Source: Psilocybe cubensis (Eukaryota). Taken from it: DNA of 64,000 nucleotides. The notes below the pieces were generated by a model that was not told the origin of the DNA, did not search any database, and saw nothing but the letters and a program-made list of their open reading frames with translations. Where the stretch lies: positions 1,240,001 to 1,304,000 of the forward strand of contig CM039009.1 in NCBI GenBank assembly GCA_017499595.2, read 5' to 3'. Shown in pieces: positions 4,818 to 29,762 of the stretch (its first letter is position 1; every line of letters begins with the position of its first letter). Made by a program: the position numbers and the translations under genes.

Positions 4818-7754
4818 TTACTCTAGGGTAATAAATAGGTGTTTGCTCGTTAACACTGCCTTAGCACCTGGTACGATCACGATCGTCTGCGTGTTGTCGA
4901 TGATCATCGCCGGGCCCTGCACGACGTCGCCAATTTCCAGGTTGTCCAGCAGAAACACGGGCGTGTCGTCCACTCGGCCGACCTTGTCGAAGTACACGCT
5001 GTATCTTGAATCGACTTTCGCGGCATGGTCAACGTGCGTTTGGGTGAGTTGCTCGACTTCCTCGTAGACAGACTGGCCGAGCGTGTCAAAGGTCTTTCCA
5101 ATGCCGCGGACCTAGAGAGTTGAAAAGAAAAATTAATTACTACACCAAAAAATTGAAAGAATACCACGGCAAAAAAAAAAACACGTACTTTAATATCGTC
5201 AACGATGATGACCTTTGTCTCGAGCAAAAACCCAAACTCAGACTTATACACGCGCTTGAACGCCGCCTCGAAGTCCTCGTCGCCCTCACCGTCTCCGTCC
5301 ACAGGAAGAACCATAAGCGCTGTATCCGTGCCCTCAAAGCGCATATTGAGCATACGCTCGACGTGAATATGGTCGTCGTCGAAGCCCTGCTTCCCCAGCT
5401 CAGTACGCACCTCCTTTGTCAGTTTGTCAAGCCGGGCTTTGAGCGTTGGCACGTTCTGTGGGGTGTAGAACGTCGAGCTCGGTTCTTGCAGTTCAAATGC
5501 TCTGTTTTGAGAAGAGGAGGGTGGGTGATTTTTAGTGATATAGAAGAAATAGAGTAGGTGGTGGGTACGTACCGGTCTGCAAGGGCCAGGCCGTAGGCAG
5601 AGAGGATAGAGCTGTAGCGATGGATTAGGATGGTTTTGATGCCTAGCAGGCTGGCGATTTCGCATGCATGCTGACCGCCTGCCCCACCAAAGCTTGCTAG
5701 ACTAGAGGCACAGGTTTAGAAAGGTACATTCAATTGCCTGTTACATGGCAGTTAAAAAATTTACATACGTATGTTTCGATGTAGCATGGCCCCTTGCCTC
5801 GGTCAACGCGCGAATAGGGCGACACATGGTCTCATTGGCAACCTTGATAAACCTGATACATCGCTCCGAAATTCAGCCCGGTCCAAATGTGAATGAAACC
5901 ACCACGCACCCGTAAACTATCTCATCCAGCGAAAGCTTTTTATCCTGGTCAGCGTTAATTTCCTCCGCAAGCTTTTCAAACGCGGACCGTGACGCCTCAG
6001 CGTCAAGAGGCTCCTTTTCAGATTTTCCGAAGATCTTGGGGAAGTAGTCAGGTATCAGCCGGCCAAGGAGCAGGTTCGCGTCTGTAACAGCCAAAGGACC
6101 TCCTTTTCTGTGCGGTTTTTGTGTTGTAAGCAAATGCCTTTATATACTGAGAGATAATTGGGTTGTATCGTACCGGTAGCAAGCAGGACCTGGCTGAGCC
6201 CCAGCACTTTCTGGGCCGGCCAGGAAGAGACCGTTGCGGAAAGTGAGACAGGATCCGCCGCCTGCCGCAACAGTGTTGATATCTAGCTGAGGGGACTGGA
6301 TAGTAACGCCCGCAGTAGTCGTTTCATAGACCACCTCGTATCGTCCATCAAATCGGGATACATCCGTTGATGTTCCTCCAACGTCCAGCCTAGAATACTG
6401 CAAATGAGCGGTGCTCGTTTAGAGCAACGATGACACATACCCAATGATAGGGTGCTTCCTCTTTTCGTCCCAGCTAGTTAGTGCATAACCAACCACACCT
6501 CCAGCAGGACCACTAAGGATACTCTTCAGCCCAGAGAAGTTATTGAGGTCTAGCAGGCCACCGTCGCTTCCCATAAATTCAACGCGTGGGCTCCGCAAGG
6601 AACCATCTTTCAATTTGCTATCAAAACCACCGAAGAACCCATCGAGATATTCTCGTAGGATGGGAGTAAGATATGCGTCTGCGGTGGAAGAGACACCACG
6701 GGGCACCATTTTGATCATGGGCAGTAGCTGTGCGGATTCAGAGATATGGGTGAAGCCGACTTTGCGCGCGATGCCGCCTATGAGACGTTCATGTTCGGGG
6801 AAGGTGTATGAGTGCACGAGAACGATGGCTATCGACCGGAAGCCTTCATCGTAAATCGCCTTTAGGTCTTTTTCTACGGTGGCAGGATCTACGTATAGAA
6901 TGTCAGAACCCAAAGTAACGTTTGAAATTAATAGGAGTAATATACCAGGCTTCTTCATAATTCGTACTGCCTCTCCAGATAGACCTTTCACGATCTCTCC
7001 TGGGCCCTCTGCATCACCCTGTCCGTCCCAGCCTTTGCCTCGATACCCCCTAACAACTTTGCCGTCCTCGTCGAATTGAACTGCATGTTCCTCTGCCTTG
7101 GGGTCGGAGGTGTATCCTACAAGCGTCACTCGTTCATCCACTTCAAGGACCTTGGAGTACAGTGGAGCAGGTCGTCGGATATTGAGATCAAAGATTTTAG
7201 GACGCGACTGGTTTCCGATAAGCAGAAGATCTTTGAAGCCTTTCGTGATTACGAGCGCGTGCTTGTGGCCTTTTCGTTCGAGCAGAGCATTGGTGGCTAC
7301 TGTCGTTGAAAGTCGGATGTAATCTAACAAACAACGCGTCGGTTATTACTCTCCTAAAGATATTAGATCTTGGAAAGAGAGCTTACCAATTTTATCAGTC
7401 TTGAGGACTGAACCCCTAGGAATCTGTTCGCCGGTGACAGCCTCCAGCACTCGACGGATGCCTTCTGTCGGGGCGTCTTGATAGTTACCTGGATCTTGCG
7501 AGACTATACAGAAAGGCCGGAGTCAATTTACATGTCATCGCACATGGTCTTCCACAAACTGACGCAGCTTCACAACAAGCTCCTTTCTCTGTTCAGGATT
7601 TTCAGGATCGGGGTACGATCTAATTGGCAGCCATATCAGATAAACTCCGTGATGAGCACAGGAAAAACAGCTTTGCAACTTACGCGTGAACATCACAGAA
7701 CGTGCCTCCTCTATCAGCGCAGATGCGGATCGAGCGATCAGGTATCGTAGGCAT
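4818..7754 (-). CDS. 5-oxoprolinase / hydantoinase A-type protein (N-terminal half of eukaryotic OXP1/OPLAH only), multi-exon
   Basis: Motifs [84 protein letters not shown]. Last exon [32 protein letters not shown] is followed by TAA TAA (first stop 4818-4820). Confidence 0.92.
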
Positions 7755-8873: not shown

Positions 8874-8924
8874 TTTGAAGTTAAAGTAGAGGGGTGAGAG
8901 GGTGGTAGCTTTGCTGCTTTTGGC

Positions 8925-10329: not shown

Positions 10330-10394
10330 TTTGATAGTGATTAAGGAGATGGGGGTAAGAGGGTAAGTGGTTGCTTTTTTGGGTTTTTAAGTAG

Positions 10395-12104: not shown

Positions 12105-12718
12105 CCCGACTACCTTCTATTTCGAACCCGACTTGAGTCGACTTCGTCGATCAGGTCGACCCGACTATAATCTATTTCTAGTCCGACTAAGCCGCCCAAG
12201 TCGACTTGGTCGTGTCGGTCGACGACTATGTTCTAGCCCGACTATATTCGACTTCGAATCCGACTTGGTCAATCAGGTCGTGTTTAGTCGACCCGACTAT
12301 GTTTTATTTCGAGCCCGACTAAGTCGAGTTAGTCGTGTCGGTCGACGACTATGTTGTATTTTTGGTCCGACTATGTCGACATAGTCGTGCAGGTCGACCC
12401 GACTTTGTTCTATTTCTAGTCTGAGTTAGTCGCCCAAGTCGACTTAGTCGTGTCGGTCGACCAATTATATTCTATTTCGTGCCCGACTAAGCCGCCCAAG
12501 TCGACTTGGTCGTGCAGGTCGACCGACTATGTTCTATTTCGAGTCCGACTTGGTCAATCAGGTCGTGTTTAGTCGACGACTATGTTTTATTTCGAGTCCG
12601 ACAATGTCGATCAGGTCGACCGACTATATTCTATTTCGAGCCCGACTAAGCCTCCCAAGTCGACTTAGTCGTAATTCGGTCGACCGACTATGTTCTATTT
12701 CTAGTCCAACTTGGTCAA
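12105..12718. repeat. Degenerate palindrome-rich minisatellite, ~12 units mostly 44-64 bp
   Basis: Core GACTATGTTCTATTTCGAGYCCGAC recurs at about 12108, 12163, 12224 (short), 12240, 12295, 12347, 12401, 12463, 12525, 12578, 12622 and 12686. The linkers are rich in GTCGAC. Confidence 0.9.
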
Positions 12719-14142
12719 TAATTGTGTTCAAACTTCAGGTACTTCACGCGCACTCCTTGCAACCTTTAGTACTTACCATCAAGTCCATATATTTATTTGA
12801 CTCTGACTCCGACTCATAGTATTAGAATAGAATTAGTAAATAGTCGAAGGAAGCAAGCCTGAGTGTATTTGTTTATTTTATTTTTAGTTTATTTGGACTT
12901 GGGTTGGACAGGACTTGCTTAGGCGCCCGTGGGCCGTGGGCCGTGGCCGTGTCACTGAACTGTACATGTGCAGGCAGCAGTGGATCATGATCAGGCGCCT
13001 GTCCGATTGCCTGATTCACCTGCGCCGCGCCGCGCTGCGTTGCGTGATGGGTGACCCCACCAACCGATTAACGGACGTCGGACGAACCGACCGAGGAGAT
13101 AACTCAAGTTCGAACCTACTTACTTACTTACAAGTAGGTGTAGTTGTAGGAGTATCGATGTCGCTATCGGAGATTTAGAATAAAATAATGGTATACTAAA
13201 ATAATTTAGATGTAGATATTTAGATGAGGGATGTATCATATGGACGAGGGATGAGGGATGAGGGATGTGGGAGGTGGGAGGTGATGTTCGATCTGAGCGG
13301 AGCGCTGAGCGCTGAGCACTGAGCGTTGAGTACGAGTCCTTGTGTGTTCCGGAGCGATGAGCGAGGGTGATGTGATACGTCGAATGCGAATGCGAATGTT
13401 AATGCGAATGAGGATGCGAATGAGGATGCGAAGGTGAGGTGGATGCGTGTGTGAATGTGAATGCGTACGCGACGCAGGCGCAGGCGAAGGCGCTGCTGAT
13501 TAGATTCGGATTCGATCTGGATTTTTATGTTATGTTATTTCAGTGCGCATTGGCGGATGTTAGAGCATTCGAACATTCGGGATGTGTGTGGAATATAAAT
13601 GAGGGAAGAGCGTGGAGGGTAGGCGCAGAGCGGAGGTAGAGGCGGAGGTTGGAAGGAATGTCGAAGGAATATGAAGGAATATAGGCGGAATATAGCAGAT
13701 GGATGAGAAGATGACAGAATCAGAATCAGAATCAGAATAGAATAAATAGAAATAGAAGTGGGATGGGGTAGGATGAGACGCGCACCTGTCGAGACTCGAA
13801 GAAGCAAGGGTACATAGTTGTCATTTCCGGGTATGGGTATAAATAGCGCTGAGCGCTCGCGCTCAGCACTCAGTCGTTGATTTTGATTTTGAGTCTCCTT
13901 TTCATCCTCTCCACCTTTCCTTTCCTTTCTTCCTCACCAGGATCCAGCTCTCGCGCCCTTCGCGTCTTTAGCTTTATTAGTTATATCATACACAACGCGT
14001 GTTGTCGGCGCATGTCCGTCTACGTCTTTGTGCTGAACCCGCTTCGATAACCAATATCCAATATTCGATGTTCGACATTGAATGCGCGTCTTGACGTTCG
14101 CTCAGGCTCCTCCTCGCCACCTCGCCGTCTTCCCCCCTTCTC

Positions 14143-14642
14143 TCAATCTTTATCCTTGCTCCTATCCTTTTCCTTCCCCGCCATATCATTTCCCTCATCC
14201 TCATCCTTAACCTGAGCCTCATCACCCTCCTTAACCCGAGCCTCATCACCCCTCCCACCCGCACCCTCCCTCTTCACCCGCCCAAACGGCCCAAACGCGC
14301 ACCCGAGCCGCGCATCGAGACAGTGCACGTTGATAGCGTTCGCGACGAACCAGTAGATGAGCGGGTGGTCGGTTGCTATTTTGTCGAGGTTGGTGGGGGG
14401 TTGGGAGGAGGGAGAGGAGGAAGAGGGGAGGGGTGATGATGTTGGTGTTTGTGTTTGTGATGACGGTGGTACAGATGAATGTGGAGGTGGGAGAGATGTC
14501 GGTGTGGGGGTTGATGATGATGATGACGGAGACGGGGACACGGAGGATGAAGATGAGGAGGAGGAAAAAGAAGAAAGAGTGGATAACATTGTGGAAAAAA
14601 GAGATGGTCCCCCGTTGGATAGCATACTGTCGAGATAGTCTG
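14143..14642 (-). CDS. Possible 3' exon of an unknown gene (Ser/Pro-rich, then a non-repetitive segment, then a charged tail)
   Basis: CTGAC...AACAG acceptor just upstream. Non-repetitive segment LDKIATDHPLIYWFVANAINVHCLDARLGCAFGPFG. Upstream exons could not be reconstructed. Confidence 0.3.
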
Positions 14643-15502
14643 TTCAGTCAGTTGAATTGAAGGCGGTGAAGAAGGGTATAAGTGTAATCGTCCACTGTAA
14701 ATGGTATGGGTGTCGGTGTCGATGTAGGTAGGGTAGGGTACGGTCGTACAACAAAATCCAAAAGTAAGTACAAATACAAGTGCAACAAGCTTTTTCCTTA
14801 TCACCTCTATTCGCTACTCAACCATATCCCGCGATCTCCCATCTCCCAACATAACACCGATATACATATTGAATCATCCAGAAAGGTGAACGTTGAAAAT
14901 TTTTTTTTTCATTATTTGGAATTCGGTCAAATCTTATCGCACCGCCGCACGGCTAAGCGCGCGTTCTGTGCCGGTGCCGCGCACTGGGCGGAGCGTCGGA
15001 CGGGCCTCGGAGGATTGGGCGTGGAATCCGGATCAGAGGGTACTAGTAAACAGATGTACATACAGGCTGATCAGTGCTAACGCAATCTTATCAGTATCTT
15101 TCGCTGGAGTGTCACGGTTGTTCAAGTTCCAGTCTCTCTCTTGCTTGCGCTATACGACATACGACAGTGTGTACTATCTATCTATCATATCACCTTGCTT
15201 GTTCGTTATCCGTTATCCTGAAAGATCTGAAAGATCTTTCGTTGTCATCGTCCGTTCCATTCGAGTTTTGAATCGATTTGGGCTGTTTGCGAGGTCTTGC
15301 ATACGCTGCGGTTGGTCTAGTCTCATTTCAACGAACTTTATTTAGGTGGATACGAGGTTCAAGGACACTCTATTCTATCTTATCCTCTTGCTTTGCTTTT
15401 GCTTTTACCTCGACATCGACCTCGAGAACGTCGATCCCAGCACCTCATACAATTCAAATTCGAATACGATCTGCTGCTCTGCACAACGTAACGTAACTTA
15501 CA

Positions 15503-18500
15503 ATGGACCCTTCTTCCAGCACCAGCACCACTACAAGCACGAGCGCGAATACAGGCGCAGGGACAGACAAACTCCTCGTTGAACAACACGTCGCGTATAT
15601 CCAGAAACTCGGCGAGGTGCGTTAGCGGTGCTCGTGTCGTCCACTTGCGTCTCGCGTCTCGTTCTCGGTATCATTCTCGTTGCTGACTCCCTCTCCTCCT
15701 CCACTTCTATTCAAATTCCGTTTGTGTTTGGTATCGCAACCATCACCACCTTTCCGTTCCCGTTCCCCTCTTCCTCTTCGTCTTTCTCATCCTCATCCTC
15801 CTCATCCTGCACCCACGAAACCTCTCTCTCTCTCTCCCCTCCCCCCTCTCTCTCACACACAGAACAAAGACGACCTCACATACCACCTCACCGCGCACCT
15901 CCGCCTCAACGCCGTCTACTGGGGCTTCACGGCCCTCTCGATCCTCGGCCGCCCCGACGCGCTCGACCGCGAGGAGATGATTGGGTTTGTGATGAATTGT
16001 TGGGATGAGGAGGCTGGTGAGTTTTTTTTGAGTTTTTGGGTTTTTTAGGGGTTTTGGGTTTTTGGGGGGTTGGGATTTCGGATTTGAGAGCTTGGATTGG
16101 AGAGTTTGGATAGATGATGGTGGATGGAGCATGGGATGATCAATAACCTTCTAATTTCCCCTTCCCTTCCCTTCCCTTCCTTTCTTTTCCACTTTCATTT
16201 TTCATTTTTCTTTTCAACCCGCTTTCTAATCCAACTACTAACTAACTCACCCACCCACCCACACACTCACTCACTCGCACCCTCACTCATATGCACACAG
16301 GCGCATTCGGCGCCCACCCAGGCCACGACGCGCACCTCCTATCCACACTCAGCGCGATTCAGATTTTGGTGATGCAGGATGCGATGGAGAGGGTTGATGT
16401 AGAGCGGGTTGTTAATTGTGCGTATGATTTTTTTTGGGTGTGGCTTTTTTTGGTTTGCGTTTTGGCTTATCTTATGTCATGTCATCTCAAATCTCACTTT
16501 GGCTCGCGCTCGATAATCGACCTCACACAAAACCAAAAAAAAAAAAAACTGCAACACCTAACCCACCCAATATATATAAAAAAAGTCATACTCTCCCTAC
16601 AACACCCATCCGGCACATTCACAGGCGACCGATTTGGCGAGCAGGACACGCGGTTTTTGTATTGTGCGGTTAATGCGTTGTCGCTGCTTGGGAGGCTTGA
16701 TGCGTTGGATGAGGGTGTGCTTGGCGAGGGTGTGTTGGGTGAGGAGGGTGTGGTGGATGAGGAGGGTGTGGTGGATGGAGAGGAAGAGGAAAAGGGGAAG
16801 GGCAGGGGGGAGGGGAGGGAAAAGGGGAGAGAGAAGGGCAAGGGCAAGGAGAAGGTAGTGGAGTATTTGCAAAGGTGTAGGAATTATGATGGTGGGTTTG
16901 GAAGGAAAGTTGGTGCGGAGAGTCATTCGGCGCAAGGTGAGATTTAGTTTTTGTTTTTTTGTTTTTTCTTGGTTTTCTTGTTTTTTTTATTTTGACGTTG
17001 ACTTTAAACTGATCTTTCTCCTCTTTCTACTCTTTCACTCCTTTTTTTGTGTATGTGTACATGTGTGCGTGCGAACAGTATTCGTATGCGTAGCGGCCCT
17101 CGCGATCCTCGACAGACTTGACGTAGTAGACGTTGACACGCTCGCGTTTTGGTTGGCGGAGAGGCAGCTTCCTAATGGGGGGTTGAATGGGAGGCCTGAG
17201 AAGTTGGAGGATGTGAGTTTTTTTGTTTTTTTTTTTCTCTTCTTCTTCTTCTTCTTCTTCTTCTGCTTTTTTTTGTGGTTTTGGTTGGGTTGGGGTTTTT
17301 TGGGTTTTTTTGGGGGGTTGGGGCGCACGCGAGCGCGCGCGAGTTCGTTCGTTCGTTCGCGTTCGTGTCGATGAACTGCACACTGCACAACTACTTCTTC
17401 ATTTTAACCTTCTTTTTATCATTATTATTATTAACATTGCACCCAAAAAAACACTATACTAACACCTCCCCCCTCCTCTTCCTACCCCCTCCTCCTCTTA
17501 CCCCCTCATCTCTCATCTTACCCCTCTCATAAAAATCTTACCGTCTCTCTCTCTCAAAACCAATAACCACGCTAACCACGCTAACAATAATAAAAACGCT
17601 AACAATAATAATAAAAACCAGGTATGCTACAGCTTCTGGGTCCTCTCCGCGCTCTCGATCCTTAACAAGCTTTCGTGGATCGATGAGGACAAGTTGACGG
17701 GGTTTATTTTGTCTGCGCAGGTGAGTTTGTGGATGTTTGTGTGTGTGTGTGTGTGTGGATGTGGGCGTGGATGGGGATGGGGAAGATGCAAGTGCGGAAA
17801 TGCTGATGATTATGGCTTTTTCTCTTTTTTTTTTTTTTGATTGGATCTTTCGTTTTCTTGAATACGATTGCGATTACGACTGTGACTTCGACTTCGACTC
17901 GACTTCGACTATGACTACGACTACGACCTACGAACACAACTATAAACACGAATACGAAAACGGTTATGGACGCGGTCATTCGGTGTCTTTCGCTCATCTT
18001 CTCGTCTTAACTTTTTCTTGTTCTTGTTACCTTTTTTACGGTAACTGCGATCGGCGCCGTTTGTTGCACACGCACACGCACCCCGCACACGCACGCTTGC
18101 ACACGAACGCACAACACGCGCTCCCGCAAATACTCGCACGCGATCATACTCACGCACACGAACGCTCGCTCACGCGATCGTACGCGCTCAGAACGCAGAA
18201 AGCGGCGGAATCGCGGATAGGCCAGGGGATATGGTCGATGTGTTTCATACCCATTTCGGGATTGCTGGTGAGTTTTTTTTTTTTTTGCGCGCGTTTTCGC
18301 TTCGTTTTTGGTTTTGTTTTTGTTTTGTGTTTTGGTTTTTGGGTTTTGGTTTTTGGGGGTTTGGGGTTTGGGTTTTGGGTTTTCGGGGTTTGGATGGACT
18401 GTGCTGGACTGGGACTTTTTTGTGCGCGGGTGCGGCTACGGCTGTGCGATGCCGATGCGTGCAAGATGCGTGCAAGATGCGAAGATGCGCGGATGAGCAT

Positions 18501-18841
18501 GAATGTGTGGTCTTTGTGCTGTGTTTGTGGTTTTTGTGGTTTTTGTGGAACTGAAACTGACTCGAATCGCCTTTTACCTCTTTGTCCCTTTCGTTTCCGT
18601 TTCCGTTTCCGTTTCCGTTTTCGTGGCTGTATATCACGCTAATCACTTTCCACCCCCACCCGCAACCCCCTTCCATCCCCCCCCCAACAAAACAAAACAA
18701 CATCAAACCCAAAAAGGTCTATCGATATTGGGATACCCGGGCCTTGTGGACCTCGACCCTGTGTATTGTATGCCTGCGCATGTTATTGAGCGGCGTGGGT
18801 TGAGGAAGGGGTGGAAGGCGCTTGAGAGGCGGGTTGGTTGA
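15503..18841 (+). CDS. BET2: Rab geranylgeranyltransferase (GGTase II) beta subunit, 8 exons
   Basis: Exons 15503-15616, 15863-16016, 16301-16417, 16586-16936, 17079-17212, 17622-17720, 18192-18267, 18717-18841 splice in frame. Motifs [79 protein letters not shown]. Confidence 0.95.
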
Positions 18842-20016
18842 GATGGGTTGCTTGGTTGAGAAGCGGGTTGGTTGAGAGGCGGGGTGTGTGTGTGGAGTTG
18901 AGTGAGTCATGTTTTGTGTGGATGGAGTCATGTTTTGGGGGTGTAGAGCGGGCATGGATGAGGCGGAGATCAGGAGATTATGAGGCGGGCGGGAATGAGG
19001 CGCGCATGAGGCATGAGGCAAGGCGGTGAGGCGGTGAGGCGCGTTAGGAAGGCTGAGGAGACGATATGGGGATCCCGCATCCGCAGCGTGTATTGTGTAT
19101 GTTTACATTGTCATTGTTGTTGTGCTGTGTGGAAGTGAGACGCGAGATAAAGGGGTTTAACGTTTGGGATTAGGGGCTAGTTAGGAGACAATGGCGAATG
19201 ACATGACAATGATAATGATATTAATAATGACACGCCACCGTGGTATCGTGGCCGGCCCCGTGATCGCGTCGAGCCGCGAGCGGCGCGGTGAGGCCGGGAG
19301 GTTGGGAGGCTCCGGCAGTGTTTGGGACTCTGGAGGCCGAGGGGTTAATATTGGTATTAGTATTAGTAATCAATGATAAATTATGCAATGGCCTTGTTAT
19401 GGTATGTGAAGGCCCGAAACGGCAACGGCCACGGATCCGGATATGGGCGGATCCGGGATGAGTCAGTTTTGAGTGGCAGTGGCCAGTGGGCGTGGCCAGT
19501 TAGTGGCCTAGTGTGCGATGGCGATGGCGATGGCCATGCGGCGCCGAGTCATGTTGTATATGACATATGTGTCCCCATTGTCTCTCGGCGTTTCTTGCAA
19601 TTCGCGAGGGGGGCGGGGAAAAAGGGGGGGGTTTGTGGTTTGGAGTTGTTCCCACGGTGATTTGTAACGGCCACGGGGACTGACTGACGAGCGAGCACGG
19701 GTACGGGTTGACGGTAACGTTACAACCCTTACGACCACTTGCTTCTTACTACTATACCAGTGTTATCTGGTTTGTTGCTCTTGTCTTTATCTTTATCTTT
19801 GTCTTTATCCTAGTCCTGGATACTTGTGTTCTACCAAGACCGGTGACCTGTGACTGGTGGCCAGTGGGATTTGGGTTCATTGTCCTGTCCTGTGGGTTTT
19901 GTCAGCTGGGATAAAGACTCGGAGCAGGAGCAGCGGGGACGATTACGTTACGGGTTGTGTTTGCGGACGAGAGGATTCCGACTCGATTCGACACGACTTG
20001 ATTCGACTCGAATTCG

Positions 20017-23000
20017 ATGGCGACGGGGTATGGTCGTGGTTATAGTTATTGTGCGGGTGCAGGCGGGGGAGGGAGAGCGAGTGCCGGTGCCACTCCGGGC
20101 GGAAATGGAGGCAGAGCCACTGGACAATCGAATGTGAATGCGGATGTGAATGGCGATGATGGCACGAATGGGACAATAGATCTACAGGGGGGCCGTTATG
20201 AGTCTGACTATAAGAGGCCCGCTGTTGCGCTTTTGTCGGGTTCCCTTTCTCCTTCTCCGTTTGCTTTTGGTTTTGCGCCTTGCTCTGATACTACGACTAC
20301 GACTACGACTACGACTTCTACACCAACGACTACAGCGAATATTGCTGCTACACCGATGATACCGACGCAGAAGACAGCTTCGTCATTGTGCCCCGATATG
20401 GATATGGATACGGGTATGGGCATGGATATGGATATAGATACGATTCCCGCCTTGTCCGCTTCCGCTTCTGCATCCAGTTCTAAATCCACAGTACCTTCCA
20501 CATCCACATCCACATCTACGTCCTCGCCATCATCATCCTCTTCCTCATCATCATCATCTACAACAACTCCCTCTTCATCCATATCCACCTCCTCACCATC
20601 ATCATCAACAACGACAACACTACCACAAACATCCACATCCACGACAACAACGACAACAACATCAACATCCCGCTTCCCAACATGGCGCACCCTCGGTAAA
20701 TTCGCAGCAGCAGCAGCAGCTATGACCCTCCCACTCCCCGCGCTCGGCGAGCGCTTCCGCTCAAAGTCGGAGCCTGCCCAGGTCCATCCTCATCCCCATC
20801 CCCATCCCCATCCTCATAATCATCCGTTGTCTTCGCCGCCGCCGATGGTGAGCGAGGACGTGGAGATGGGAGATGCGCGTGCGCGTGTGCGGGACGAGGT
20901 TGGGGGTGGGTTTAGGAGGGCGAGTAGTGAGAGTGCGGCGGCGGCGCGTGCGCGTGGTGCGCGTGTAAGTGGGGGGAGAAGGAGGTTTGATGTGAGTCTT
21001 TTGCTTTGCTTTGCTTTGATTTCTTTTCGTCTGTGCTTTGCTCTTTGCTCGCTTTGATTTTTTGTTTCGTGCTCGCTTTGATTTTTCTGTTCTTTGCTCG
21101 CTTGTTTTTTACTTTTTTTCATTTCATTTTTTTTTTTTGCTCCCCCCGCTCGAAGCATACCGACGCTTTTCATGCCATCCTTTTCCTTCTTGATTACACC
21201 GCCGTTGTTCACCCTTCACCGTTCAACGTCCAACGTCCAATTGCTGTCATCCTTTTTGTTGGCTCTGCGATGGTATTTTTGGATTTGGATTTGGATTTTG
21301 GGATATGACTAATTTCCATTTTTTTCACTCTGTTCTTCTTCCTATTTTCTATTCCTATTCTTGTTCCTGTTATTATTATGCCTATTATTGAATCGTATGC
21401 CTATCACCGATGGTTCGATCCATTCGCTATGTCGCTTGACATCATCCATCATTTATCATCGCGCTTCTGTTGTCCCTCATCGCGTGTCGCTCGTTGATCC
21501 CGCGTTGATTTCTTTTTGTTGTTGTTGTTGGTGGTGGTTTTTGATTTTTTTTTCTTGTTTCTTCATTGTTCTTATTCTTGGTTTTGTTGTTATGGTTTTG
21601 TTTGGCTTTACTCTGATTTGATTGCCTCACTTCTATTACTTCTTCACTCCAACGCTTAACTTTAATTTTACTTGTTCACTCCCAACTCCCAACTCCAACT
21701 CTTTCACTTGTGCTTTGATACTGACTCCACCCTTTGTCTCTACAGGACCCAATGCCTAGCGTAACAGAGTCCACAGAATCACCAGCAACAGAATCAACAG
21801 AGTCCACAGATAGCGAAGACGAGGCGTGTGCGGTCGAAGCGCAGATTTTCGGGCCTGTTTCTCCTATCAAGTCCAAGGCCAAGGCCAAGTCCGAATCCAA
21901 GGCCAACGTCAAGTCCAAGGCCAACGCAAACGCAAACGCAAATGCGAATGTGAATGCGAACCGCAAAAGCAAAAGCAAAAGCAAAAATGACATCGGCGGG
22001 AATGGCCAGGCACGCGAAGAGGAGGATACCGATACCGATACAGACACGGACACCGACACCGAGAACGAGGAGCAGGAGGAGCAGGAGGAGCAGGAGGAGG
22101 ATTGGGCGGCGCACTATGATTATCCGCAGTCGCAGCTTCCGCGGTTCCCTGATGAGATTGAGAAGATTGAGAATCAGGGTGTGTCGGTGGTGGTGGTTGA
22201 GCAGGCGTCCGAACAAGAACAGCAGCAGCAACGACATGCGTCGTCATCGCCATCGCAATCGCAATCACAACCACAACCTCAAACGCAAACGCAAACCCAA
22301 ACGCAAACCCAATCCCACCACCAACCACAACCCCAACAACAACTAACCCGCACCATCTCAAACGCATCCACCGAAGTATTCGACACGCCCCCCGAAGATG
22401 TGATGCGCAACCTTGTACGGCGCGGCATCCGGATTCGGGATTTTGCGTATGTGCGTGGGTCGAGGGCGCATTTTCATGCGGGGTTTGATGGGGAGGGGGT
22501 GGGGGTTGGAGAATCGAGTGAGGAAGGGGGTAGGGATGTGGGAAGGGATGTGGGAAGGGATGGGAGTAGGGAGAAGGAGAGGGAAAGGGAGAAGGAGAGG
22601 GAAAGGGAGAAGGAGAAGGAGAGAGCGGAAGAGCGTATAAGGCGGATGAATACGCAGCCTGCGGCTGAGATATTCGATCCTATCAAGGCGCTCTCCGAGT
22701 GCGATTATAGATGGTGGGTCGTCCCTGCCCCTGCCCCTGCGCCGTCGTCCACATCAACATCAACATCAACGTATTCGGCGGCGCAAGCACCAGCACAACC
22801 ACAAACGCAAGGACAACCGCAAGGACAACTAGCACCAGCACCACAGGCGCCGAGACAACGCAAGTACGCAGTACCAGGTAAAACGCTCCGACGCCTTTTG
22901 GATATAGGGTGGCTGTCGCATGAGGAGCTCCGCGCGAGAGGGGACGAGAAGGATTGGGAGAGTTTGAGGGTTTATGATGAGCGTGTGAGGGCGTCTTTGG

Positions 23001-24594
23001 GGGTGTATGCCTCGGCTTGTATGTCTTCTGCTGGTGGTGGTGGTTCTGGTGCTGGTTCTGTGGGCAAAACAGGAAAAGCATCGGTATATGAAGGTGGAGC
23101 AGCTGCGCAGATGCAGACGCAGACGTGGGGTGGAGGCGCGTACCCTTGGAGACCGATGAAAGTGCGCGAGCGGCTTGCGGAGGGGTTGGCTGCGGGTGTA
23201 GGGACGGGTGCGGGTGCGGGGACGGGGACGGGTGCGGGGGGTGTTGTGCAGAACGGTGTGCAAGCGATCAGCGCGATGATCAGTTCCGCGCTCGGCTCTT
23301 CTTCTTCTTCTTCTTCTACCTCCTCCTCAACACCATCATCCTCGTCGTCAACATCAACTCCTTCGTCATCGTCGTCGTCAACGACAACGACAACACCATA
23401 CACCCCCTGCGGCCCACCACCTACACCCGCACAGCGCCTCGCAGCGCTCAAAGCTCTCTACCCGTTCTGGAGGTATATGGACTCGACGAGGGAGAAGCAG
23501 GAGAACTTTGAGAGGTGGGAGAGGGAGAATGAGGAGAGGGTTAGAGCTGTTATTTTGGAGCGGGAGCGGGTGGGGGTGGGGGAGAGGGTGGGGGTTTGGG
23601 CTGGTGCGGTTAGTAGGAATGAGAATGCGGGTGTGGGTGCGAATGGACAGGGACAGGGACAGGGTGCGAATGGAGTGAGGAGGGGGAGCAGTAAGCGCCG
23701 ACTGGATGAGCGCGAGGAAGCCGGCGATGCTCAGAGTCAGGTCGTGGAGCAGAAGCAGGAACAAAAGCAAGCGCAGAGCGAGCGGAGCCCGAAGCGTATG
23801 CGGATGACGCCTGAGCGCGAGATGCGGTCGTCGCAGTCGCAACCGTATAGACAACAATCCTTCTCACAACCCTCCTCTTCCTCTTACTCGTCGTCGTCAG
23901 CAGCGGCGGCGCAGCCACATGCGTATTACCCGCTGTTCTCCTCACAGCCCACGCCCACCTCCTCCTCCTCCTCCTCCTCCTCGTCTCATCCAACGCACCA
24001 GTACCAACAATCCCAACCCGCGTACCCACACTCGCACTCACACTCACACTCACACTCACACTCGCATCAGTACCAGTATCCATATTCATACCCATACGCG
24101 CCGCCGCTGAAACAGTACCCAGCCCCACTGCGCTCGTACGATCCGCAGGTGTACCCGGACGCGGCGAGCGTGATAAGCGGGAGCGGGCAGCCGCGCGCGA
24201 ATGATGCGTTGCCTTTGTCGCAGGAGAGTGCTTCTGGTAGAGGTCGAGGACAGGGGCAGGGAGGGGGAAGGGGCAAGAGGTTGGGGAGGGTTGATACGCC
24301 GCCTTTTGATGGCGATGGCGATGGCGATGGCGAGGGTCAAGGTCAGGGTCAAGAAGGAGGAGAAGGAGGAGAGGAGGGCGATGGAGTGTTTGGGTCGCAG
24401 TCGCAGGGCAGTCCAGGGCGAAAGCAGGGAGGCACGAGGCTTGTTCATCCCAAGGAGAGAAAGGCGATGCAGCGCGCGTTGAGTCGGACGCAGACGTATA
24501 CCCAGCTGTGAGTCTTGTTTTTTTTTTTTTGTTTCTTTGTGGGATGGGATGGGATGGGATGCTGATGTTCTTTTTTGGTTGTAGGATTGTATGA
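20017..24594 (+). CDS. Large (~1250 aa) low-complexity protein of unknown function
   Basis: Exon 20017-20991, intron 20992-21745 (GTGAGT...CTACAG), exon from 21746 in the frame of the 925-aa ORF. It ends either at TGA 24509-24511 or via intron 24508-24584 to LIV* at 24594. Islands of normal complexity: LVRRGIRIRDFAY, VPGKTLRRLLDIGWLS, YDPQVYPDAA. Confidence 0.65.
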
Positions 24595-25089
24595 GGATCA
24601 GGATGATGACTTGGATATATTATCGCATAACGCCTGAATATTGAATGCCGGAATGTAATACGGAAAGACGAGCGAGCGAGCAGGCAGGCAGGCGGCCAGT
24701 AGAAACAACAACAACGACGACGACGGCAAAAAACGCACACGCACACGCAATGCGGAACCTTTCTATTTTATTTTCTTCTATTTTTCTACTTTTTCTAAAG
24801 TTGGGACATTCAATGAGAATGCGAATGAGAACGTGAACGTGAACGAGAACGAGAATGGTAGAAGAAATGGTAGAAGAAATGGTAGAAGAAATAGGAAATA
24901 GCAAGGTTTGCGTGTATACGAAGCGTTAGCGGGACACTTTTTTTCTCTCTTTTTTTCTTTTTTTTTTTCTTTTTCTTTTTAATTGTTCATTCACGTTAAT
25001 CATTTTTATTCTCCGTGGATTCTTGGTTTTTTTAATTACTTTATTCAATTCAAGTTTGATTCAAGTTCCCATTTTTTTCCATTTTCCAT

Positions 25090-25214
25090 TTTTCACTTTT
25101 GCACTTTTCACTTTTCACTTTTCACTTTTCACTTTTCACTTTTCACTTTTCACTTTTCACTTTTCACTTTTCACTTTTCACTTTTCACTTTTCACTTTTC
25201 ACTTTTCACTTTCA
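25090..25214. repeat. (TTTTCAC)n heptamer microsatellite, ~15 perfect copies
   Basis: Direct reading of 25102-25212. Confidence 0.97.
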
Positions 25215-26334
25215 TCATCATTATCCCTCAGGCCCTCATCGACATCGATCATCATCAGCAGATTTTTCATCGCATTATGAATCATGATTCACATCGCATT
25301 TTCTCATCTCGATTCGATTCGACTCGATGATTTATCGTATTTCCTCCCCCTCCTCCCCGTCCATTCCCCTTCATTTTCTTCATCCCCATCCCACTTCATC
25401 CCCTTCATCCACTTCATCCCCTTCATCCACTTCATCCCCATCCCCACCTTTATCCCATCCCCATCCCCATCCCCATTTTTTTTCTTTCTTGAAACAATTG
25501 AATATCGAGTCACTTACTATCCCGCGGATCTCCCATTTCTGAATTTTCTTTTTTCTTTTTTCTTGAATGTACCGTCGTAATCCCTCTGTGTTCTGTGTAC
25601 ATTGTGTTTACATTGTGTTTACAGCATTGTGTATATGAGCATGAAATTGAATTGAATAATGTAATGTATAGAATTGAGTTGAGTCGAGTTGCACGTAACG
25701 GTGTACAATGGTACATGTACATGGATTTTTTGTTACCTCTGCATGTAAGTAAGTTAAAATGTCCGGCTCCGGCTTCAGCTCCATTGACTGCTACATGGTA
25801 TGATGGTAATTACAAGGATAAAGCATAAAGGACCAAGGACGGACGTCGGAGGGTTTATTGGAAGTATAAGTGACAGAAAGTATAGGTGTTTTACTATTGG
25901 AACAGTGGAAAAGTGGGATAGATAGATAGTTTGTAAACTTGTATTTTCTATAGTCTTAGCCTTAGCCTACTCTCATTACAAATTTTCAAAGTGGATTTCA
26001 AAGATTTTACAGGAGTCCAGGACTATACAGTACAGTATGGGATCAAAGCAGAGAAATGATGGATGATTCAATGAATAGTACTACAGTTACCAGTACTTGT
26101 TCATAACACCATTTACAAGTACAAGTACAACGTGTAGTGAGAAAGTGAATTATTTAAATCGAAAGCAAAGCAAAAAAAGCAAAAGCAAAGCAAAGCAAGA
26201 TAGTCAAGTCATAGCGCCAAATCCAATGCATATCATGTTATATCATGTTCATGTTCTGTCATCTCATGTCATATCACATCTAGATCCCACCCTTCCCTTC
26301 CCTTCCCTAGCACACCATCCATTCTACAAATACT

Positions 26335-27696
26335 ACCTCCATTTCTTCCTCGCTTTCTTCTGCGCCTCGGTCATCCACAGCGGCGACTGCCTCCGTGATG
26401 ACGGTGAGGGTGACGATACGGATGCAGATGCAGATGCTCGCGCCATGTACACCCGCGTTGCACGCAGTGTGCGCTTTACTTTACTTTGCCGTCTCATTAT
26501 CGGCGGGCCTGGATGAGTGAGTGAGGTGTGAGTGAGGGGGTGGGAGTGTGGTTGATGATTGATGAGTGAAATGTGGTAGTCGGTTAGCTAGTCATAGAAA
26601 TAGGAAGCTTACAGTATGATGATCCTCACCGTAGAGCGACTCAAGCTCAGAATCCGAATTATCCGAGCCATCGTCATCGTCATCCGAGTCATCGTTGTCC
26701 GAGTCGTCCGAGTCATCGTCGTCCCAGCCGTTATCATTCGAATCATCGTCAGAAGACGTGCCTTCAGCTTCAGATTCTTCAGATTCTCTCGCGGACTCGG
26801 AAGTGTCAATGTCCATGAGCGGAAGCGGAAGAGAGCCGCGAAACGGAGCTGGAACTGTGTCGGCAGCTGTGTTGTCCGAGTCAGGGTCCGGGTCAGAGAG
26901 AAGGTAGTACATGTCGTCGTGGATGTAAAGAGCGAACATCGCGTTTGCGACCGCGTCTTCGTCTTCGTCTTTATCTTCGGCCTTGTCCTTGTCCTTGTCC
27001 TCATGTTTATTTTTATCTTTATTCTTGTCTTTATCTTTATCTTTATCTTTATCTATAAATTCAAAGTTCAAAGTTCAAAGTTCAAAGTTGCCCTCAACAT
27101 CGAGGAATCAAATAATAAAATAGGACACACCTATTCGCTTGTTCGCATTCACCTTGGGCGCCTTGGGTGCAGTTGAAGCCCTGGGTATTTCGACTCGGAC
27201 CTCGACGTTCTCCTCCGTCATAATACCTATATATGTCGCATCGCCGAGGTCAAGTTCGTCTACATCCCCTTCAACCACCGGCTTATCGTCTGCTGAGAGA
27301 TGAGGTTTGAGGAGCGGGTACTTTTAGGGGGAGAATGTGGATATGAGGTGCGCACCGGGGGATGCTTGGAGGTGCGGGGTGTTATCAATGTCAATGTCAA
27401 GTTCGTTCAAGAATTTCAAGTATTCGTCCTCTGGATTTGTTACAGTGATTGTGCAATGCGGATAACATACCATATCATACCCATACCCGTACCATAATAG
27501 CATAACATCCACCGAGACAATTGAAATCCAAAAAAAGAAGTACAAAAGAATACACTTCCATCAGTTCCGTTGTACAAGTGATAACCAAACTCCTGCCTTT
27601 TGAGCTGCGACACACACCTAACTCTGGCTCTGGCTCGTACTCGGATTCGTAGTCGCTGCCAGTGCCAATCGAGTCGTCGAGATCGAACAGTGACAT
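26335..27696 (-). CDS. Putative multi-exon acidic low-complexity protein, unknown function
   Basis: MSLFDLDDSIG... start. Candidate exons EDEYLKFLNELD..., DDKPVVEGDVDELDLGDATYIG..., DKDKDK...ESLYGEDHHT are separated by GT-AG introns. The 3' end is ambiguous. Confidence 0.4.
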
Positions 27697-28247
27697 CACT
27701 GATCAGTGATCACTAGCAGCAGCAGTAGTAGTAGTAGTAATAGTAATAGTAGGAGAGCAGCAGAGAGCAGTCAGCAGAAAGTGAAAGTCCGTTCGCTAGA
27801 AATCAGGATACCACGGCACCCTGAACGATTGAAAATTCCAAGACTTGAACACAGCTATGAATTATTTGATGTCGATTTTAGCGATCGACCTAGGGCTAGT
27901 ATGTAGTCTCTAGTCTCGTCGCTCGAGGACCGAGGTAGCCACCTTGGAGCAGCAGACAGCCTGAGGCGCGGAAACGAAGCAAACCGGAAGCCCCTAACTA
28001 AAATAAAGGTTGTTAAATGCCGGTTATGCGGAGATTGAATATATTGAAATTTATTATGTAATATTATTAGTTTATTTTTGAGCCTAGGGGCTCTCAAACT
28101 TCTCAATTCGCCCACAAGTGCTTACTGCTCAGTTGGCTGTTCTGGTATTTATTTGTATTGTGCTGGGGCAACTATGATTGAGCTGACGGCGTAAGAACAC
28201 ACGCTGGTGAAGAGCAACTTCATGGCGGTCGCGTCGCGTCGCAGGTG

Positions 28248-29762
28248 CCCGCATCAGGAAAACAGGCGAGGAATAGAACAAATAGAACTAGCAAAAATAT
28301 TTAATTATATTTAATATATTGATTCTATTTGTTTATTTGTCGAAATAGATCTAAGCCCTCTGATCGGATTGCAAATCGACGTTTAGAAATATATGCCATG
28401 TCGGAAACTATTTCAACTGGTAGAAACGGCACTACAGGTATTTCTAGCATGCACTTATAGAGGAAGTAGAATTTGAGATATAATCAAATAGAACATTGCT
28501 TGAATTGAATAGATTTTTACATTTTTTAAGCTTCACCCAAATAGTAGAGATAGAAAATTTATATTTTGGTTAATATGTACTCAAAAACATTCATGTACTA
28601 TGAGAATATCCTAAGAAAAAGCTACTATTCCTGGTTTCCTGGAAGGGTGGCATGAATTGACAACGCGCGAGGATAGCTAGAAAGCTAATCAGGTTTTGCT
28701 GAAGCTACAATAGTACATGTCAGCGAGCAATATCAACAAGAACAATAACACTCACAGCCTAGCAGACGGCGGCGGTGTTGTCTGTAGTTGTAGGAGTGGG
28801 GTAGTTAGGAAGGTGGAAGGAATGCACGTACCTCACTCAAAGCCGAGCAGAGATGGCGGTGGTGCGATCTGTAATTGTAGGAGTAGGGTGGTAAGTTAAG
28901 GGAGGTGGAGAATGCACGTACCTCACTCGCAGCCGAGCAGAGACGGCGGTGGTGTCATCTGTAGTTGTAGGAGTAGGGTGGCAAGTTGAGGGAGGTGGAA
29001 GGAATGCACGTACCTTGTTGGCCTCCCCTCACGACTCTCACGCGCCCTTTGTCATGTTTACAGCTGCGGTGAACACATCGTGTTGTTGCATCAGGCGTCG
29101 TCCGAGTCGTGTCTTCATTGCGTTGCGACGGTTGTGCATACGTAGGAGATGGTGGTAAGTTGGGACTTGTGTTGAACGTGAAAAACGCGGGATGGCTTGT
29201 AAGTCGGAGTTTGAACATTTGATCGAAAAATTAAATCGGATCACTTGTCGGGTGAATAAATATTTCGGCCGCGCCAAGTCCGCGGAGAGATGAATCCGAC
29301 AAGTGCTCCTCCAACGGAGGAGCAATCCATACCCGCTGCGCTTTGTCGGGGTCATTTTGCTGTATCCGTAGTTGAATCTGGTTTCGCATTCAAGTTGGTG
29401 ATGAGTCGTTTATCGGCTTGATTTTGTGTCGTGACCGCGTTGTCGGGATAATTTGGGTGTTAAACATTTAATAGTTTGTGTCACCTTTGTGGTGTGGCGG
29501 TTATGTCTGACAGTTGTAATGACCTTTTTTGTAAGGTTACGCGTTCGATCCTGCACGAGCGTCGTTTTTCTGGACTTGATAGAAATATAACTCACCCCTG
29601 TAAAACATGGAAAAAAATTCGTTGAATAGGATTTGATAGGAAATTTTCATGTAGTTGATAACATTTAGAGAAAAATTGTTAGATAGAAAATGGTACATTA
29701 TGTGGACTATCCCTTCTATATCTTATATCTCTTCTAATCCTCGCCTGTTTTCCTGATGCGGG
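28248..29762. mobile_element. 1515-bp non-autonomous DNA transposon with TIRs (possibly CMC/EnSpm-like)
   Basis: Left TIR CCCGCATCAGGAAAACAGGCGAGGAATAGAA (28248-28278) matches the reverse complement of 29732-29762 at 30/31. GTG flanks both sides (28245-28247, 29763-29765). AT-rich subterminal zones contain many TAGA(A) motifs. No transposase ORF. Confidence 0.9.
28751..29013. repeat. Three ~80-92 bp tandem direct repeats inside the transposon
   Basis: Unit CTCAC...GCCGAGCAGAGAYGGCGGTGGTG..ATCTGTARTTGTAGGAGTRGGGT...GGTGGA..AATGCACGTAC ends at 28831, 28921 and 29013. Confidence 0.92.

Follow-up and report, generated by a model that had tools for sequence, protein, structure and literature searches.

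The 64,000-nucleotide stretch of Psilocybe cubensis DNA analysed here (the window) contains an SSR-saturated island at 12800..27800, in which two conserved genes are embedded. The first, on the + strand at 15503..18841, is BET2, the Rab geranylgeranyltransferase beta subunit, modelled in eight exons from PF00432 relatives and exon HSPs. Its complete 389-aa frame is interrupted by seven GT-AG introns of 142-471 nt (15617-15862, 16017-16300, 16418-16585, 16937-17078, 17213-17621, 17721-18191 and 18268-18716). The second is a conserved Agaricomycete gene for a mostly disordered protein, whose main exon (21734..24511, +, 925 aa) was recognised by alignment with relatives. All motifs conserved in the family are kept in this ORF, and each linker between them is filled by repeat-encoded runs. 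A Ser/Thr-rich, repeat-encoded open frame at 20002..20990 (+), to which no Pfam family could be assigned, may be a 5' exon of the same gene, with a putative repeat-filled intron of ~750 nt running from GTGAGT at ~20991 to a 3' splice site near 21746. On the - strand, a 166-aa open frame of uncertain gene status (14143..14643), consisting mostly of Ser/Pro/Thr and acidic repeats, has no Pfam family and no homologue in 18 related loci. The same holds in Pfam and the related loci for a putative acidic-protein gene at 26592..27697 (-), a predicted model with Asp/Lys, Asp/Ser and Glu repeats and a start codon ~100 bp inside the right border of the island. The first-pass annotation of this DNA held that genes in the block are intact, as is evident from the spliceable frame of BET2 and the retained motifs of the 925-aa ORF.

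Tandem repeats identified by TRF (222 rows) cover 32.1% of the island, against 2.0% of the left flank and 1.6% of the right. Dinucleotide-shuffled versions of the island (n=20) reach a mean of 0.27% and a maximum of 0.61%, and the microsatellite saturation originally claimed is thereby confirmed. Each kilobase from 12 to 29 kb holds 167-447 TRF bases, compared with 0-88 elsewhere in the window. One exception outside the island, at 62-63 kb, has 171. Perfect SSRs number 10.8 per kb in the island and 0.43 per kb in the flanks, with hexamers making up 63/162 and 1/20 of them, respectively. The tandem repeats form 137 non-overlapping clusters, among which we counted 121 distinct canonical motifs; arrays have a median length of 26 bp and 3.8 copies, the longest pure one (25075..25212, +; 7-bp unit, ~19 copies) lying in an intergenic part. 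Neighbouring arrays are often variants of each other, and no long repeat families are shared across the island arrays beyond low-complexity look-alikes. Since nearly every array has its own motif (121/137), the arrays arose from local sequence, with no spreading element involved. Every sequence class is affected. Periods of the 90 non-coding arrays peak at 5, 6 and 7 (11, 24 and 17 arrays, together 52/90), while the period is a multiple of 3 in 46 of the 47 coding arrays; in exons only such units survive, which keeps the frames open.

A two-changepoint fit placed the borders of the island at 12401 and 27800. The sharp bounds described in the first-pass annotation hold for the right border; the left is softer, with mild enrichment over 10-12 kb and a minisatellite at 12.1-12.7 kb (12106..12738, +; units of ~44-62 bp in a single orientation). 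The unit of this minisatellite matches the window eight times (0.01 expected), always within 12106-12738. The flanking DNA is ordinary, as had been stated, with SSR-free ORFs for an oxoprolinase, hydrophobins, a 2OG oxygenase, an M28 peptidase and F-box proteins. We used the 5-oxoprolinase/hydantoinase gene of the left flank (4821..7745, -), in which there are no SSRs and the two cleanly resolved introns measure 64 and 77 nt, as a control. Just outside the right border, a repeat-poor, AT-rich segment (28248..29762) with 40-nt inverted repeats at its ends, 90% complementary, and an internal 90-bp x3 repeat (28749-29015) looks like a small non-autonomous DNA transposon.

The + strand of the island had also been described as oscillating between C/A-rich and G/T-rich blocks under a strand-polarised regime. 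All eight blocks singled out in that description carry the sign attributed to them, and 100-bp GC skew has a standard deviation of 0.46 within the island versus 0.23 in either flank. Neither periodicity nor a polarised regime could be sustained, however. Shuffling the blocks yields spectral peaks that equal the one at 536 bp (keto skew, p = 0.23; GC skew, p = 0.47), and runs of array orientation (55 versus 65.5 expected, z = -1.85) indicate that switches are slightly rarer than chance. Averaged across the island, skews are close to zero (GC +0.05, keto +0.09, purine -0.02), with 63 G-rich and 66 C-rich arrays. The alternation is a by-product of the repeats, because the composition of any short repeat is lopsided and two types of block alternate by definition. 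Real strand polarity is confined to introns: all BET2 introns (7/7) have a G/T-rich 5' half followed by a C/A-rich 3' half, in the direction of transcription, and T/G-rich, G-quadruplex-like runs recur in three of them. This ordering might reflect slippage amplifying the local composition of splice signals, with arrays that make false splice sites being removed.

Comparison with related loci shows that the neighbourhood is conserved and its repeats are not. We found 18 related metagenome loci, 13 of which are informative in having at least 1 kb upstream of the disordered-protein gene orthologue; BET2 lies directly upstream in 10 of these 13 (10/18 overall). Flank genes adjoin the pair in single relatives, namely a hydrophobin in locus L007, the window's 37.2-37.7 kb gene in L003 and its 40.8-41.8 kb gene in L006. 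BET2 and the flank oxoprolinase occur on equal-sized contigs in 7 of the 29 species named in both match lists, and in Cyclocybe the orthologue of the disordered-protein gene shares the contig with both. Across the 18 loci, TRF coverage is 0-4.6% compared with 32% in the P. cubensis island, and repeat-filled introns or inserts appear in none of them, nor in nine aligned BET2 orthologues or five further BET2 gene calls.

The same comparison gives a measure of growth. From the start of BET2 to the end of the disordered-protein gene, the distance is ~3.0-4.0 kb in six loci, 6.0 kb in one and 9.0 kb in the island, a 2.3- to 3-fold lengthening of the pair over its relatives. The BET2 introns, 2-4 times the length of those in relatives, sum to 2169 nt (1094 nt in locus L008), and exon 4 has a repeat-encoded insert of ~45 aa which is missing from the nine aligned orthologues. 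The disordered protein, whose family comprises 54 relatives of 178-742 aa, is about doubled in length with respect to the relatives compared for size (~335-600 aa; 389 aa in Cyclocybe). An Atlas model of its orthologue has a pLDDT of 0.47.

A mobile or foreign island, such as a transposon or a giant cargo element, was considered and rejected, as no repeat is common to both borders and the gene pair is adjacent in 10/13 loci; of the ORFs compared with Pfam, none belongs to a transposase or integrase family. Horizontal origin was likewise rejected. The flank oxoprolinase is 86% identical to that of Galerina and 85% to that of Gymnopilus, of the five BET2 exon HSPs that resolve cleanly, four are most similar to Gymnopilus, and the nearest relatives of both genes are of Hymenogastraceae/Strophariaceae type, a coarse assignment from best hits and not from trees.

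Sequencing data from other studies bear on the reality of the block and on its variation. Raw reads of an independent isolate cover 30/30 bins of 8000-25080, the left border included, at depths comparable to the flank, and part of 9000-18999 is present in 11 of the 14 runs listed, from four studies. Contigs built from short reads are repeatedly interrupted within the island, and at the left border no listed contig formally bridges the junction, the single joint having 21 letters on its short side, much as would be expected of an assembly artefact, a chimera or contaminant DNA. Set against these reads, against genes that are spliceable and conserved, and against a gene pair and single flank neighbours that are syntenic in relatives, such an origin is scarcely credible. 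Contig depth is ~3-fold at 22250-22819 and some reads run into other low-complexity sequence, a hint of similar loci elsewhere in the genome.

The repeat-rich form is present in 4/4 runs compared, under three organism labels. Strain differences from the window include 5-15 bp, repeat-sized indels and array replacements in X5, X7 and X13 (among the 12 listed of 200 indel rows), and the copy number of the left-border minisatellite differs between runs, with joints that skip 54-56 bp and, on the short side, 522 bp. Among the contig pieces listed (24 of 403), other letters per base are 2.4-3.6 times as frequent in the island as in the flank (71/3526 versus 25/2983 in X5; 124/3445 versus 37/3650 in X7), an excess which weaker constraint alone may explain, the flank pieces being largely coding.

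These many strain differences in repeat length, in a native and syntenic block whose repeats are absent from relatives, support the first-pass proposal of a local regime acting in place. We consider it very probable that the island is a native, conserved Agaricales neighbourhood, flooded in place and in this lineage alone by births and small expansions of short tandem duplications. Homologous introgression, or an old divergent haplotype, from a repeat-rich and GC3-rich related lineage, with old crossovers as borders, would also produce sharp edges and would explain why the block differs from its flanks in two independent aspects of composition, its repeats and its BET2 GC3, and homologous replacement would keep synteny, in agreement with the related loci. 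Nevertheless, we judge it distinctly unlikely. No donor is seen among the 18 related loci, the nine BET2 orthologues and the five further gene calls, island BET2 and flank oxoprolinase have the same nearest relatives, and none of the runs compared, whichever their label, departs from the repeat-rich form.

Base composition offers a further clue to the cause of the flooding. GC3 is 0.70 in the conserved exons of BET2, versus 0.44-0.57 in 13 flank ORFs, and at aligned codons the window's BET2 exceeds its relative in 10/10 loci (+0.04 to +0.23). For the 37-kb flank gene, GC3 is lower than in L003 (-0.14), the reverse of BET2 against the same locus. Conserved blocks of the disordered-protein gene have a GC3 of 0.67, with two up and two down when paired with relatives (n = 30-48 codons), and three further island ORFs have 0.47-0.53; the rise is solid for BET2 only.

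Among the causes put forward in the first-pass annotation, a recombination or repair hot region appears to fit best, because BET2 GC3 is raised and sizes are inflated, while a signature like that of mismatch-repair loss fits poorly, mono- and dinucleotide arrays (4 + 2) accounting for just 6/90 in non-coding DNA. We tentatively propose that the block has long been a hot domain in which recombination or double-strand-break repair is frequent. Slippage-prone repair synthesis would create changes in repeat length, conversion of small length differences between parental copies would favour the longer allele (insertion bias), and GC-biased conversion would raise synonymous GC. Chromatin-opening repeats could keep the domain hot, helping to account for its sharp edges. 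Net inflation relative to orthologues, seen in the gene pair and the BET2 introns alike, is in keeping with this proposal. Two further clues are the excess of other letters in the island pieces of X5 and X7 and the polymorphic minisatellite at the left border. The rise in non-coding GC expected from GC-biased conversion is hardly seen, non-repeat non-coding GC being 0.462 in the island versus 0.436 in the flanks (0.458 in the left flank) and 0.425 in the AT-richer non-coding arrays. Known fungal recombination hotspots are 1-2 kb wide, compared with 15 kb here. A hotspot study (PMC6485458) documents, in humans and Drosophila, that short length differences undergo insertion-biased conversion and that hotspots are enriched in repeats; it also reports deletion bias for a 10-nt difference, so that a bias towards insertion need not extend to units of 5-7 nt. 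Taken as a whole, in-place flooding driven by a hot domain is the best explanation we can offer, with a probability of roughly 0.4.

Recombination may, alternatively, have had no role. The island would then be a domain, defined by replication or chromatin, where loops of 5-7 nt formed by slippage go unrepaired. This could come about because replication there is late or difficult, because forks stall at repeats that are G-rich or form hairpins, or because loop repair is poorly recruited. The domain-like extent with its sharp right edge, the involvement of all sequence classes and the G-quadruplex-like T/G-rich runs in three BET2 introns would suit this explanation, as would the unit sizes, which fall within the loop range handled by Msh2-Msh3; in yeast, repair of loops of such size depends on Msh2-Msh3 and not Msh6. 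We think it unlikely, given that it does not predict the raised GC3 of BET2, mutation bias usually being towards AT, that the classic sign of mismatch-repair failure is so scarce among the non-coding arrays, and that a housekeeping gene such as BET2 would hardly be expected in silent chromatin.

If recombination were suppressed or the effective population size low, for instance through linkage to a locus under balancing selection, slightly harmful insertions and repeats would accumulate, as they do on young sex chromosomes, and this could account for inflated introns and proteins and for high strain divergence; microsatellites are reported to have built up on a young Y chromosome (PMC3547029). 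The Pfam-scanned ORFs include no mating-type-like or other candidate balanced gene, no transposons lie within the island, whose sole element-like neighbour (28248..29762) is outside it, and BET2 GC3 is raised rather than lowered in genes that remain intact. This possibility is accordingly very unlikely, and the hot domain remains our preferred cause.

Our literature searches returned no matching description of such a bounded, microsatellite-saturated gene block. Four known systems come closest. The instability of mismatch-repair-deficient cells is dominated by mono- and dinucleotide runs. Such cells, e.g. in yeast (PMC3755907), share with the island an excess of repeat-length mutation. Theirs is genome-wide, whereas the island is local and dominated by 5-7-bp units. 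The young non-recombining Y (PMC3547029) resembles the island in a regional build-up of simple repeats, whose limits are set by a change in recombination regime, as they would be here; it has few motifs in long arrays over megabases, unlike the 121 motifs, short arrays, 15 kb, lack of transposons and intact housekeeping genes found here.

In the hotspot system (PMC6485458), repeats and length heterozygosity go along with a transmission bias to the longer allele for small differences and with a GC bias, as proposed for the island. Together, biases of this type would account for the gain of repeats, the inflated sizes and the higher GC3. Those data concern poly-A tracts at a kilobase-scale human hotspot, where a 10-nt difference is deletion-biased (PMC6485458). 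In the island, non-coding GC is hardly raised.

There remains the comparison with slippage on its own terms. Cryptic simplicity, reportedly described by Tautz, Trick and Dover in 1986, is said to be slippage-generated simple sequence pervading genes and spacers. The island is similar in its many unrelated short motifs of few copies each, in coding as well as non-coding DNA, with frame-preserving units in exons. The classical accounts deal with individual genes or with entire genomes, and not with a bounded multi-gene block. The density seen here, by contrast, is limited to ~15 kb with a changepoint-sharp edge, in a conserved neighbourhood whose genes show no such density in relatives. By its coverage above chance, its length polymorphism and its origin from local sequence, the island nonetheless qualifies as slippage-generated simple sequence.

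Tandem repeats saturate a single block of the window and are sparse on either side of it. TRF covered 167–447 bases in each kilobase from 12 to 29 kb and 0–88 per kilobase outside it, except for 171 at 62–63 kb, a coding repeat region. The island at 12800–27800 returned 222 TRF rows and 32.1% coverage, against 10 rows (2.0%) in the left flank and 25 rows (1.6%) in the right, while 20 dinucleotide shuffles of the island gave a mean of 1.9 rows and a mean coverage of 0.27% (maximum 0.61%); the microsatellite saturation described in the first-pass annotation is thus borne out. Perfect repeats, taken as at least three copies and at least 12 bp, reach a density of 10.8 per kb in the island versus 0.43 per kb in the flanks, and hexamers make up 63 of 162 of them in the former and 1 of 20 in the latter. 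A two-changepoint likelihood fit placed the borders at 12401 and 27800. Sharp bounds had also been claimed, and this holds for the right edge, which is abrupt and has the start codon of the last island gene ~100 bp inside it, but only partly for the left, where repeats are already mildly enriched at 10–12 kb and a minisatellite occupies 12106–12738. Located exactly at the left border and absent from the rest of the window, this minisatellite runs in one orientation with units of ~44–62 bp rich in GTCGAC and CGACT words, and its copy number varies from run to run. It may, for example, act as a boundary element, mark a hotspot or represent the subterminal array of a transposon.

The make-up of the arrays indicates how they arose. 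After overlapping TRF rows were merged, 137 arrays remained in the island and 32 in ~47 kb of flank. With motifs counted up to rotation and strand, the island arrays comprise 121 different motifs, the median array being 26 bp long with 3.8 copies and a 90% match. Unit lengths in non-coding island DNA peak at 5, 6 and 7 bp (11, 24 and 17 of 90 arrays), mononucleotide and dinucleotide units accounting for four and two of the 90, and units are a multiple of three in 46 of 47 coding arrays. Such a profile is characteristic of short tandem duplications born independently many times from the local sequence, expanded modestly afterwards and screened by the reading frame; no spreading repeated element lies behind the arrays. 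We conclude that in this lineage a regional process has acted on the spot, giving rise to short tandem duplications in all sequence classes and lengthening them modestly, and that selection removes only those repeats which break the frame and, presumably, those which break splice signals.

Strand composition follows from this saturation. The eight skew blocks named in the first-pass annotation all show the sign given there, and the standard deviation of 100-bp GC skew in the island is twice that of the flanks (0.46 versus 0.23). The broader claim of an oscillation, or of an island-wide polarity, did not survive: mean skews across the island are near zero (GC +0.05, keto +0.09, purine −0.02), G-rich arrays (63) are as common as C-rich ones (66), and the strongest spectral peak, at 536 bp, does not rise above 2000 block shuffles (p = 0.23 for keto, 0.47 for GC). 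A periodicity at 536 bp was rejected because shuffles of the same blocks give an equal peak; the value is close to the spacing of exon plus intron in BET2, which encodes the Rab geranylgeranyltransferase beta subunit. Array orientation switches a little less often than it would at random (55 runs observed, 65.5 expected, z = −1.85). Skew alternates because each array is compositionally lopsided and two block types alternate by definition, and the apparent rhythm within BET2 arises because its exons plus introns are spaced by a few hundred bp. The sole non-trivial polarity in the island follows transcription and belongs to the BET2 introns.

The predicted gene model of BET2 (15503–18841, + strand) is complete, with 8 exons, 7 GT-AG introns and 389 aa, and Gymnopilus is most similar in four of the five cleanly resolved exon HSPs. 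Its introns measure 246, 284, 168, 142, 409, 471 and 449 nt (2169 nt in total), and tandem repeats fill 50–76% of the four measured. At L008, a related metagenome locus, BET2 has introns at the same seven positions, which total 1094 nt and consist of ordinary sequence. In each of the seven window introns, both G and G+T are more abundant in the 5' half than in the 3' half, with a keto skew difference between halves of 0.35–1.05, compared with −0.03 to 0.39 at L008. Intron 2 (16017–16300) is predicted to form a single long hairpin between a G/U-rich 5' half and a C/A-rich 3' half, 81 of 81 predicted pairs crossing the midpoint (z = −5.0 against shuffles), and the fold of intron 5 is also unusually stable (z = −3.3). 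Among the seven introns folded in this manner, only these two were clearly more stable than shuffles; intron 7 was borderline and four were not significant. Three introns carry T-run/G-run repeats which appear G-quadruplex-prone (16022–16094, 17267–17331 and 18313–18393). A T-run follows each of their 5' splice sites, and the repeats begin directly after the splice site in two cases and ~55 nt after it in the third.

Coding sequence carries repeats as well. Exon 4 of BET2 is predicted to encode a repeat-derived insert of ~45 aa at a surface loop (16700–16850), composed of Gly/Val/Glu and then Gly/Lys/Arg/Glu runs; it is missing from all nine aligned orthologues, one of which carries at this position an insert that is unrelated and not repetitive. 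Downstream of BET2, a second gene (21734–24511) encodes a mostly disordered, conserved Agaricomycete protein of 925 aa. A word-indexed search with residues 200–625 of this protein found no relatives, probably because repeat words crowded them out, most relatives also falling below the searched length range. An exhaustive profile search with the protein recovered 54 relatives of 178–742 aa, the best being 509, 602 and 369 aa long. Their alignment reveals short conserved motifs common to all, and in the window's copy repeat-encoded runs fill every linker between these motifs. The Cyclocybe orthologue, at 389 aa, has a poorly ordered Atlas model (pLDDT 0.47), and an Atlas look-up of this orthologue gave no usable match. 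Three further open frames in the island matched no Pfam family and had no homologue in 18 related loci; they may be lineage-specific genes or repeat-generated frames, and some may not be genes.

These 18 loci, returned by scanning metagenome contigs with the alignment of the 925-aa protein's relatives, have a tandem-repeat coverage of 0–4.6%. BET2 lies directly upstream on the same strand in 10 of them, or 10 of the 13 with at least 1 kb of upstream sequence; it is missing upstream in two more distant loci (2.5 and 4.8 kb of upstream sequence) and in one other (1.5 kb). From the start of BET2 to the end of the second gene, six loci span ~3.0–4.0 kb and one 6.0 kb, compared with 9.0 kb in the window, and the matched part of BET2 measures 1.47–1.91 kb in the eight loci with most of the gene matched, compared with 3.34 kb. 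Single relatives also have flank genes next to the pair: L007 a hydrophobin upstream, L003 the counterpart of the gene at 37.2–37.7 kb downstream, and L006 that of the gene at 40.8–41.8 kb. BET2 and oxoprolinase occur on equal-sized contigs in 7 of the 29 species common to both match lists. Homologous introgression from an unseen repeat-rich relative, which has to be set beside these repeat-poor loci, seems to us quite unlikely.

The window is Agaricales DNA. In the left flank lie a 5-oxoprolinase gene (4821–7745, − strand), one exon of which is 86% identical to Galerina and 85% to Gymnopilus, and two tandem hydrophobin genes (PF01185; 8550–8981 and 10022–10386, − strand). In other strains, both contigs and reads contain joints linking one hydrophobin copy to the other (10274 back to 8816), which suggests copy-number change or conversion between paralogues. 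Immediately beyond the right border lies a 1.5-kb element (28248–29762), AT-rich and poor in repeats, which is bounded by 40-nt inverted repeats (90% complementary) and contains a 90-bp tandem repeat in three copies at 28749–29015; it resembles a small non-autonomous DNA transposon. Long, intron-poor, SSR-free ORFs, some with weak F-box or F-box-like matches, form a cluster at 29952–36224 and 46017–49186 that takes up the interval from the island to the gene at 37.2–37.7 kb. In L003 only ~1.2 kb separates the counterpart of that gene from the second gene of the island, so the cluster may represent an insertion specific to this lineage. No tRNA genes and no Rfam families were found in the window.

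Public sequencing runs indicate that the island is real and variable. Part of 9000–18999 is present in 11 of the 14 rows listed, from four studies, and the raw reads of an independent study (X13) cover 30 of 30 bins of 8000–25080. Depth summed over both read orientations is ~18–48 per bin in the flank versus ~11–39 in the island. One gap-like bin at 18830–19399, in intergenic sequence downstream of BET2, reaches ~4.5; this segment is missing from run X7 and present in runs X1 and X5, so that strains either differ in whether they have it or have diverged extremely there. In two further runs, one of them labelled as a different organism, contigs contain the island but with repeat-sized indels and replaced arrays. 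Together with synteny in relatives, the independent coverage as far as 25.1 kb makes contamination, chimeric assembly and non-homologous transfer very unlikely, and an artefact is scarcely credible. Among the 24 pieces listed out of 403, differences number 71/3526 in the island and 25/2983 in the flank for X5, and 124/3445 and 37/3650 for X7, although constraint differs between island and flank. At 22250–22819, contig depth in X5 and X7 is ~3-fold above neighbouring bins, and many X13 reads pass from a hexamer array at ~22280–22312 into other low-complexity sequence, which hints at similar repeat-rich loci elsewhere in the genome.

Base composition at synonymous sites adds a further signal. 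GC3 is 0.70 in the conserved exons of BET2 (246 codons) and 0.67 in the conserved blocks of the second gene (293 codons), compared with 0.44–0.57 in 13 flank ORFs. Over aligned codons, the window's BET2 exceeds its relative in 10 of 10 loci (+0.04 to +0.23), whereas the flank gene at 37 kb is lower than its counterpart in L003 (−0.14), a relative against which BET2 is higher. Paired comparisons for the second gene are few and mixed, the three other island frames have a GC3 of 0.47–0.53, and GC in non-repeat non-coding DNA is 0.462 in the island versus 0.436 in the flanks. Raised GC3 is therefore not general across the island. A low-recombination block we regard as decidedly improbable.

Our main reading, to which we assign a probability of roughly 0.3, is that the island results from a hot domain for recombination or break repair, with slippage and biased conversion. 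Repair synthesis would slip within such a domain, short length differences would be converted towards the longer allele, and GC-biased conversion would raise synonymous GC. This cause would jointly account for the repeat gain, the 2.3–3-fold inflation, the GC3 of BET2, the border minisatellite and the higher strain divergence. For a human hotspot, insertions are reported to be favoured when the difference is 1 nt and deletions when it is 10 nt, alongside enrichment of poly-A at hotspots (PMC6485458). A more elaborate proposal, which we hold only tentatively, is a heritable, sharply bounded hyper-slippage domain: a self-reinforcing meiotic break-repair hot domain in which duplications would be born at a high rate and fixed by insertion-biased conversion, so that a conserved housekeeping gene pair tripled in size in one Agaricales lineage, while selection would sort intron repeats into G/U-rich 5' and C/A-rich 3' halves able to pair, keeping oversized introns spliceable. 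A domain defined by replication or chromatin, in which loops are poorly repaired, is in our estimation unlikely; it nevertheless ranks first among the rivals, followed by introgression, the low-recombination block and artefact.

As a case of regional heterogeneity in mutation, the island is striking, well controlled and unexplained, and it is not yet evidence for a new system. Should a local cause be found, the locus would constitute a natural experiment: the same conserved genes can be compared under a high-slippage regime and outside one, and an internal control lies only a few kb off. The locus could reveal to what extent a regional regime of repair or recombination determines intron size, the low-complexity content of proteins and the expansion of genomes, as well as how splicing tolerates introns grown several-fold. 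It also serves as a warning that some fungal loci change length far faster than their surroundings, breaking short-read assemblies and inflating apparent divergence.

A literature search at the level of listings turned up no account of a fungal genome with a bounded microsatellite island. A mobile element or mobile island was considered and rejected: no border repeats are common to both ends, the ORFs scanned include no mobility genes, synteny is kept, and the inverted-repeat element lies outside. Instability through loss of mismatch repair does not match either, since the unit sizes are wrong for it and the effect is local. Unlike Y-like repeat accumulation, the island is without transposons, its genes are intact and GC3 is up. 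In texture it matches the classical "cryptic simplicity" as well as the repeat enrichment seen at recombination hotspots.
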